From Shigella phage sb3, in the sequence record PQ666541: 64,000 nucleotides of DNA; one strand, 5' to 3'. Both the position numbers and the translations under genes were made by a program. Shown one piece after another: positions 51,806 through 52,186 of the stretch. Within the stretch, counting starts at the first letter, position 1, and every line of letters begins with the position of its first letter. A model generated the notes under the pieces. It did not search any database, was not told where the DNA came from, and saw nothing but the letters and a program-made list of their open reading frames with translations.

Positions 51806-52186
51806 CTACTTTTTGAAAGTTTTTCGCAAAAGTTCAATGATTTCATCTACATTGTTTTCGTCAACAATGCAGTGAATTTTTGTTACGCCAGAAACCTTGT
51901 CTTCGACTTCATCTTCTTCAGAAGTCGATTCTTTATATTCGCTGAAACAATAAAACTCTTCTTCACTAAGTTCAAAAAATCCATCATTGAGGTAAAAATG
52001 ATTTCCATTAGCACATTCAAAATGATTTACCGGTTTAAATACATAATCAAAGAAAATTGATTTAACTTCAAACCAACCACCATTTTCTTGAATAATATTA
52101 GCATTTGATGAATTAGAACGTGGGCGCTAATTAATCAATGAATTAATACGATGTGGAACAAGTTTATATTTTTTACCGATTTCCAT
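51806..52186 (-). CDS. 127-codon ORF with an in-frame TAG at codon 20
   Basis: ATG 52184-52186 preceded by GAGGAAAA; TAG at 52127-52129; same frame continues 106 codons to TAG at 51806-51808. Confidence 0.45.

Follow-up and report, generated by a model that had tools for sequence, protein, structure and literature searches.

The small early gene frd.2 in the phage DNA analysed here is probably a genuine null allele, in which a nonsense substitution has placed an amber stop at codon 20 of a gene that can be dispensed with in the laboratory, a reading that is given a probability of roughly 0.6. The window, meaning the whole 64-kb stretch that was analysed, is a collinear T-even (Tequatrovirus) segment from gp14 through gp37, with an identity of 96.5% to Shigella phage pSs-1 across 64 kb, and most of its proteins are 98-100% identical to their pSs-1 counterparts. 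The interrupted locus is frd.2, a single base accounts for the lesion, and the frame beyond it holds neither a downstream start nor recoding signals. We infer that the phage itself has the stop, which would then not be an assembly error, and that it is not suppressed in the host. The locus is orthologous to frd.2 of the relatives, but it is a null or pseudogene allele rather than a functional member of the FRD2 family. Taken alone the lesion is an ordinary nonsense allele, which matters mainly for annotation and as a quality flag, with the locus to be labelled an frd.2 pseudogene or flagged for resequencing, not entered as a small novel ORF.

The interrupted frd.2 frame

A preliminary description of this DNA had claimed an open frame with a strong ribosome-binding site that is interrupted by an amber codon, and a direct read of the minus strand, together with translation of 51806-52186, bears this out. 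The frame comprises 127 codons when both stops are counted, with 19 sense codons followed by TAG, then 106 sense codons and a terminal TAG. Its features, in the order in which they are transcribed, are as follows.

52204-52226, minus strand: GC-rich hairpin between the end of frd.3 and the Shine-Dalgarno sequence of frd.2 (-10.9 kcal/mol, z = -2.4)
52194-52198, minus strand: Shine-Dalgarno sequence GAGGA of frd.2, from the direct read, with a 7-nt spacer to the ATG at 52186-52184
52130-52186, minus strand: frd.2 codons 1-19, MEIGKKYKLVPHRINSLIN, the sole portion within reach of ordinary decoding
52127-52129, minus strand: premature amber TAG at frd.2 codon 20, TAT (Tyr) in the closest relatives
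51809-52126, minus strand: frd.2 codons 21-126, a presumably untranslated remnant that encodes the entire Pfam FRD2 domain
51806-51808, minus strand: natural TAG terminator of frd.2, the same terminator as in relatives

The GAGGA columns are identical across an alignment with sb1, pSs-1, CM8, ime09 and T4, and the stem sequence of the hairpin at 52204-52226 is also present in relatives. A second hairpin-like repeat lies at about 51770-51800, after the frd.2 terminator.

The position of the locus identifies it as frd.2, as does its product. It sits between frd.3 (52232-52480; Pfam Phage_FRD3) and frd.1 (51509-51751; DUF5417), gene 32 (52605-53513) lies upstream of it and frd (50670-51254) downstream, and the order gp32, frd.3, frd.2, frd.1, frd is shared with sb1, pSs-1, CM8, ime09, RB69 and T4, so that synteny and strand agree with 6 annotated relatives and 10 contigs. 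When codon 20 was taken as Tyr, the conceptual translation matched the Pfam FRD2 family (PF03197) with 94.8 bits (E = 5.3e-27), far above the curated cutoff of 29 bits, over residues 30-126, all of which are encoded downstream of the TAG. The 318 nt downstream of the codon-20 stop were free of in-frame stops in 0 of 20,000 composition-matched shuffles, which along with the FRD2 match places the open frame after the TAG beyond chance.

Comparison with relatives makes it apparent that the two parts of the frame belong to one gene, as the preliminary description had proposed. Homologues covering residues 1-126 were found by tblastn in 740 phage records, and FRD2 lies wholly beyond the stop. Annotated relatives (sb1, pSs-1, CM8, ime09, RB69) have a single CDS of 366-393 nt in the frd.2 slot, and relatives encode one unbroken protein of 119-138 aa. 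Among clusters of frd.2 homologues 47 of 50 have a length of 119-151 aa and the other three are truncated (69-95 aa), whilst an intact FRD2 protein of 121-128 aa is present in 10 of 10 independent contigs that carry the same frd.1 allele. The single uninterrupted ORF of about 120-135 aa that is typical of the family is broken in the window by the TAG at codon 20. Within the family the N-terminal motif M1, G4, Y7 and P11 is invariant or nearly so, and its conservation makes the 19 codons upstream of the stop part of the same protein.

Compared with the closest relatives, the change from TAT (Tyr) to TAG at codon 20 is a single T>G transversion. The codon-20 column varies within the family (Y/H/I/T/N/A/L/M/E), and no stop was found in this column among 28 aligned representatives or 15 DNA alleles. 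The preliminary description had also named the case that would speak against a continuous gene, a stop at the same site in relatives followed by a separate downstream start, and this was not seen.

It could still be argued that the downstream 106 codons are an independent gene with a start of its own, and a long open frame would by itself speak for this. The chance of it is practically negligible, as there is no ATG, GTG or TTG until codon 120, no ORF of at least 25 aa that begins with one of these codons in frame after the codon-20 stop, and no Shine-Dalgarno sequence for the in-frame ATT/ATC candidates or for the TTG at codon 120. The start and ribosome-binding site after the stop that would mark a split gene are thus absent at frd.2, and in all relatives the homologue of the 19 upstream codons is the conserved N-terminus of this one protein. 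An independent downstream gene in the frd.2 frame was rejected for want of a start or a Shine-Dalgarno sequence.

The frd.2 gene of T4 occupies the same slot and strand with the same Shine-Dalgarno sequence, the window copy has a T4-like N-terminal motif, and its last 45 residues barely differ from those of T4. The window copy differs from that of T4 in being broken at codon 20, and in being a third type of allele that lies between the T4-type and the pSs1-type.

Decoding at the stop and the cost of losing frd.2

If the stop is decoded in the ordinary manner, ribosomes would start at the conserved Shine-Dalgarno sequence and ATG, halt at the TAG and release a peptide of 19 residues, with the 106 codons past the TAG left as an untranslated remnant. 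The nearest intact homologue, as modelled with AlphaFold2 (pLDDT 83.8), has a strand at residues 6-9 and a helix at residues 11-20, residue 20 is the end of this helix and all core strands are downstream of it; going by the model, the released peptide would be without any core strand of the Frd.2 fold. An N-terminal SH3/LSm-like beta-barrel is predicted for the Frd.2 product, which would resemble FeoA and other SH3/Tudor-like small beta-barrels at the level of fold only. T4 frd.2 has been described as a member of the GoF/MotB.1/Frd.2 family of early proteins with a predicted LSm-like fold in Tevenvirinae (PMC12152347).

The loss of such a protein may be tolerated by the phage through the dispensability of frd.2 in laboratory growth. 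An engineered T4 frd.2 amber mutant, made in T4D by replacing the first Ser codon with TAG, plates about equally well on supD and sup0 hosts, and frd.2 is therefore non-essential in the laboratory (PMC12152347). This mutant likewise has an early amber in frd.2 and loses the gene without a plating defect, but the window is from a Tequatrovirus other than T4, which has neither segG nor introns in td and nrdB, and the codon affected is the Tyr-equivalent codon 20. That the window is the engineered T4 frd.2 amber strain itself was rejected, as the window is not T4 and the amber is at another codon. In a CRISPRi-ART screen frd.2 was the single T4 fitness gene of unknown function (PMC11879866), and given this fitness score a natural frd.2 null is not obviously free of cost. 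If the natural null is confirmed, the CRISPRi-ART knock-down phenotype (PMC11879866) may prove to be polar or condition-dependent, and the null, along with the differently broken frd.2 of Escherichia phage Ec_YwIITB1, would support the dispensability of the gene.

Suppression and recoding would each allow the whole of frd.2 to be translated, and the two together appear improbable. T-even phages encode clusters of tRNA genes, and suppressor derivatives of T4 tRNAs are known. The allele could be a conditional one, the amber being suppressed by the host (supF would restore Tyr) or by a tRNA of the phage encoded outside the window, with full-length Frd.2 and NrdB produced as a result. The change of TAT to TAG is the classic change from Tyr to amber, the stop in nrdB is also a TAG, and frd.2 amber mutants have been built in T4 (PMC12152347). 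Even so, suppression is quite improbable, since other genes in the window are broken by TAA, by TGA and by a frameshift, which are beyond the rescue of an amber suppressor, and no tRNA gene was found within the 64-kb window. The stops are thus not all TAG, as they would be in a set of amber-conditional genes accompanied by a suppressor tRNA. Nor does the comparison with T4 carry far, as the phage is another one, with about 96% identity to pSs-1 and with neither segG nor an intron in td or nrdB, and as the engineered amber of T4 replaces the first Ser codon rather than codon 20.

Programmed recoding, either as readthrough or as a bypass of the kind found in gene 60, is hardly credible at this site. 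As general background, UAG followed by C is a comparatively weak context for termination, and T4 gene 60 contains a translational bypass element. The frd.2 TAG has the weak UAG-C context, T4 provides a precedent, and an AAT codon precedes the stop with another AAT 15 nt further on. However, the same AAT...AAT arrangement is found in relatives without the stop, all of the relatives examined carry a sense codon at the site, and nothing is conserved as a signal. The local RNA fold is like that of the intact pSs-1 sequence (z = -0.95), and there was no Rfam match in 51400-52700. Neither the conserved stop nor the accompanying signals of programmed recoding are found at frd.2, and readthrough and bypass were rejected on the lack of significant structure, of an Rfam match and of conservation of the stop. 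No evidence for reassignment of the codon was found either.

Divergence and private changes of the frd.2 allele

The premature stop is part of a recombination-mosaic copy of frd.2 that has changed unusually fast. The window copy is the third allele type referred to above, in which T4-type and pSs1-type states are interleaved. Its conceptual protein shares no more than 76% identity with any known protein and contains 17 private residues, and the best match among 5.8 billion protein clusters had 71% identity. Private to the window is F17L, at a position that is otherwise invariant in 28 family members. There are 15 private nucleotide changes in the window frd.2, compared with 1-6 in each of the neighbouring genes, where private means that the base is absent from 15 other alleles, a definition that enriches for transversions and for nonsynonymous changes.

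It is these private changes that give local error part of its plausibility. They are spread evenly over the codon positions (5:4:6), all are nonsynonymous and about 80% are transversions (2-3 transitions to 12-13 transversions), a pattern that resembles random base replacement. Omega for the N-terminal two-thirds of the window frd.2 against pSs1-type alleles is 0.5-0.68, compared with 0.18-0.29 among intact alleles, T4-type against pSs1-type included, and the last 45 codons of the gene scarcely differ from those of any relative. The values indicate relaxed constraint, or local noise, on the lineage of the window frd.2. Simple neutral decay is poorly supported as a full account of the private changes, which are rich in transversions and include none that is synonymous, against a ratio of about 3:1 in favour of transitions in the window (119:35 at four-fold degenerate sites). 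The changes may reflect an unsampled lineage of alleles, selection or local error.

Searches of the 5.8 billion protein clusters, IMG/VR, JGI metagenomes and GTDB genomes gave no independent copy of the window frd.2 allele, whether it had the stop or lacked it, and allele-specific 23-mers were absent from the latter three collections. A similar result was obtained for the neighbours, with exact look-ups of the window frd.3 (82 and 75 aa) and frd proteins giving no record in an index of 153 billion genes. Both of these genes are intact and have private residues of their own, A103S, N123I and Q124L in frd (DHFR, 50670-51254) and S33P, W36R and H48Q in frd.3 (52232-52480); everything from frd through to frd.3 makes up an unusual block of alleles.

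Other broken genes and the possibility of error

It had been noted previously that frd.2 is not the only broken gene in this DNA, and this holds, with nrdB, gene 34 and a further four genes found to be broken when every pSs-1 protein was mapped onto the window. Their lesions are as follows.

30241-32298, minus strand: second alt-like ADP-ribosyltransferase paralogue, with three in-frame stops that leave ORFs of 203 aa and 300 aa
35317-35319, minus strand: TGA replacing Trp in hyp215, the homologue of pSs-1 gp215
35666-35668, minus strand: TAA replacing Leu in hyp216, the homologue of pSs-1 gp216
46203-46205, minus strand: TAG at codon 177 of nrdB (45555-46733), CAA in relatives, a difference of two bases
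51254-51498, minus strand: 1-nt deletion near 51401/51402 in an 81-aa gene that lies between frd.1 and frd
56329-56331, plus strand: TAA at codon 151 of gene 34 (55879-59745), an essential gene for the proximal tail fibre

The preliminary description counted three apparent nonsense alleles, in frd.2, nrdB and gene 34, and suggested for the ambers of frd.2 and nrdB a shared cause such as strain background or sequence quality. The stop in nrdB is indeed a TAG, whereas that in gene 34 is a TAA and thus ochre. With three types of stop and a frameshift among the lesions, an amber-suppressor background is ruled out as a common cause; TAG is also a normal terminator in this DNA, where it ends 4 of 79 mapped genes, frd.2 included, beside TAA in 53 and TGA in 21. 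Generally poor sequence quality was rejected on the spectrum of substitutions across the window, which bears the signatures of purifying selection: isolated private substitutions over the 64 kb have a transition to transversion ratio of 291:59 and a synonymous to nonsynonymous ratio of 279:49, with 82% at third positions. What the lesions have in common is instead their location in divergent patches, with four of six in the most divergent 3% of 200-bp bins (at or above the 97th percentile), which are patches of a recombination mosaic.

A change that could be taken for a further lesion is found at 22308-22313, where the stop of gp51 is CAA in place of the TAA of pSs-1, Ec_YwIITB1 and KNP5. This apparent loss of a stop is benign, the CAA being directly followed by a TGA, which overlaps the ATG of gp27, so that one residue is gained.

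The clustering of lesions in divergent patches can also be explained by error. Here the TAG in frd.2 would come from sequencing, assembly or consensus calling, the phage itself having an intact frd.2 with TAT, or some other sense codon, at this place; reads of co-existing divergent alleles could have been collapsed or polished within a mosaic patch. The main argument for this comes from gene 34. Its stop site is TTA in pSs-1 and AAA in P922 and T4_ev240, and the patch of gp34 around it is 97.7% identical to P922 and T4_ev240 save for a 12-nt pSs1-like insert, within which TTA became TAA. A TAA in an essential gene is hard to reconcile with a viable phage, it is the strongest hint of artefacts among the lesions, and trust in the others is weakened by it. 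The lesion in nrdB is also suggestive, as the TAG needs two base changes and stands amid about nine private substitutions within 30 nt. The surrounding 251 bp has a best database match of just 88%. Residues of about 163-200 of nrdB are hypervariable, with distinct pSs1-type and KNP5-type alleles, and the window copy is a hybrid. A second copy of any of the lesion patches was absent from the collections scanned.

Other lesions have a different appearance. All three stops in the alt paralogue are in a central patch of 1.1 kb, the largest of the patches, with 207 private substitutions, distributed 61:43:103 over the codon positions, and without indels. The patch is at most 82% identical to any of 50,697 phage records, yet its flanks are 100% identical to relatives. 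The enrichment at third positions and the lack of indels make this a real diverged allele and not noise, and it looks like a deeply diverged one from an unsampled lineage; possibly the allele was dead already before it was imported. In the 81-aa gene a C has been lost after a TTTT run, splitting it into ORFs of 35 aa and 46 aa, and the gene is intact in pSs-1, L010 and L014. This gene is in the immediate neighbourhood of frd.2, although its bin is not divergent. The small ORFs hyp215 and hyp216 lie downstream of gene 30 (DNA ligase), and the stop in each is within a small cluster of private substitutions.

A general point against error is the kind of gene that has been hit. When genes are classed as essential or dispensable from T4, all broken genes except gene 34 are dispensable; essential genes make up 51% of the coding length but took just one lesion of nine (P = 0.016 when counted by lesion, 0.054 by gene). 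Real mutations that have been filtered by selection are expected to avoid essential genes in this manner, and random errors are not; the null in frd.2 would accordingly be one of several inactivations in dispensable genes. The global quality of the sequence is high, and the alt patch provides a case in which great divergence is that of a real allele. As for the collapse of alleles at codon 20 itself, a position-wise mix of the T4-type ATT and the pSs1-type TAT cannot yield the G, and a chimeric consensus of these two types was rejected as the source of the TAG, as far as the known alleles go. An error in frd.2 is the less likely reading, if by no means remote, and at codon 20 a real mutation is favoured over a local assembly error. 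Besides the avoidance of essential genes, this preference draws on the substitution spectrum of the window, the relaxed constraint on its frd.2, the separate breakage of the same two genes in Ec_YwIITB1 and the plating of the engineered T4 amber mutant.

A parallel to the window is provided by Escherichia phage Ec_YwIITB1 (PQ356294), which shares about 96% identity with it and whose annotation lacks frd.2 and splits nrdB. The frd.2 of Ec_YwIITB1 is a hybrid of pSs1-type, T4-type and again pSs1-type sequence with junctions that shift the frame, as opposed to the nonsense codon of the window, and in its nrdB 4 nt are deleted from the hypervariable segment that holds the TAG in the window. As the lesions differ, the breaks in the two phages are independent events or independent artefacts. 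Either the mosaic junctions at frd.2 and nrdB are prone to real inactivation or both assemblies are faulty there. The annotation of Ec_YwIITB1 also splits the major capsid gene and hoc and truncates frd, and for this phage the choice is between recurrent real breakage at mosaic junctions and a record with assembly problems.

Gene 32 (SegG) and nrdB (MobE, I-TevIII) are targets of homing endonucleases in T4, and if these targets apply here the neighbourhoods of frd.2 and nrdB would be hot spots of gene conversion. A further idea joins the two genes, in that their ambers might be read as sense by the phage's own suppressor tRNA outside the window, making both genes conditional, or, in a milder form, that mosaic repair at conversion hot spots of homing endonucleases (SegG near gene 32; MobE and I-TevIII in nrdB) repeatedly inactivates both; the chance of this is slim at best. 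In the window neither td (49610-50467) nor nrdB has an intron, and segG is absent from the gap between gp59 and gp32 (53514-53615). Without the T4 homing elements in these places, the window phage would be a potential recipient in endonuclease-driven conversion.
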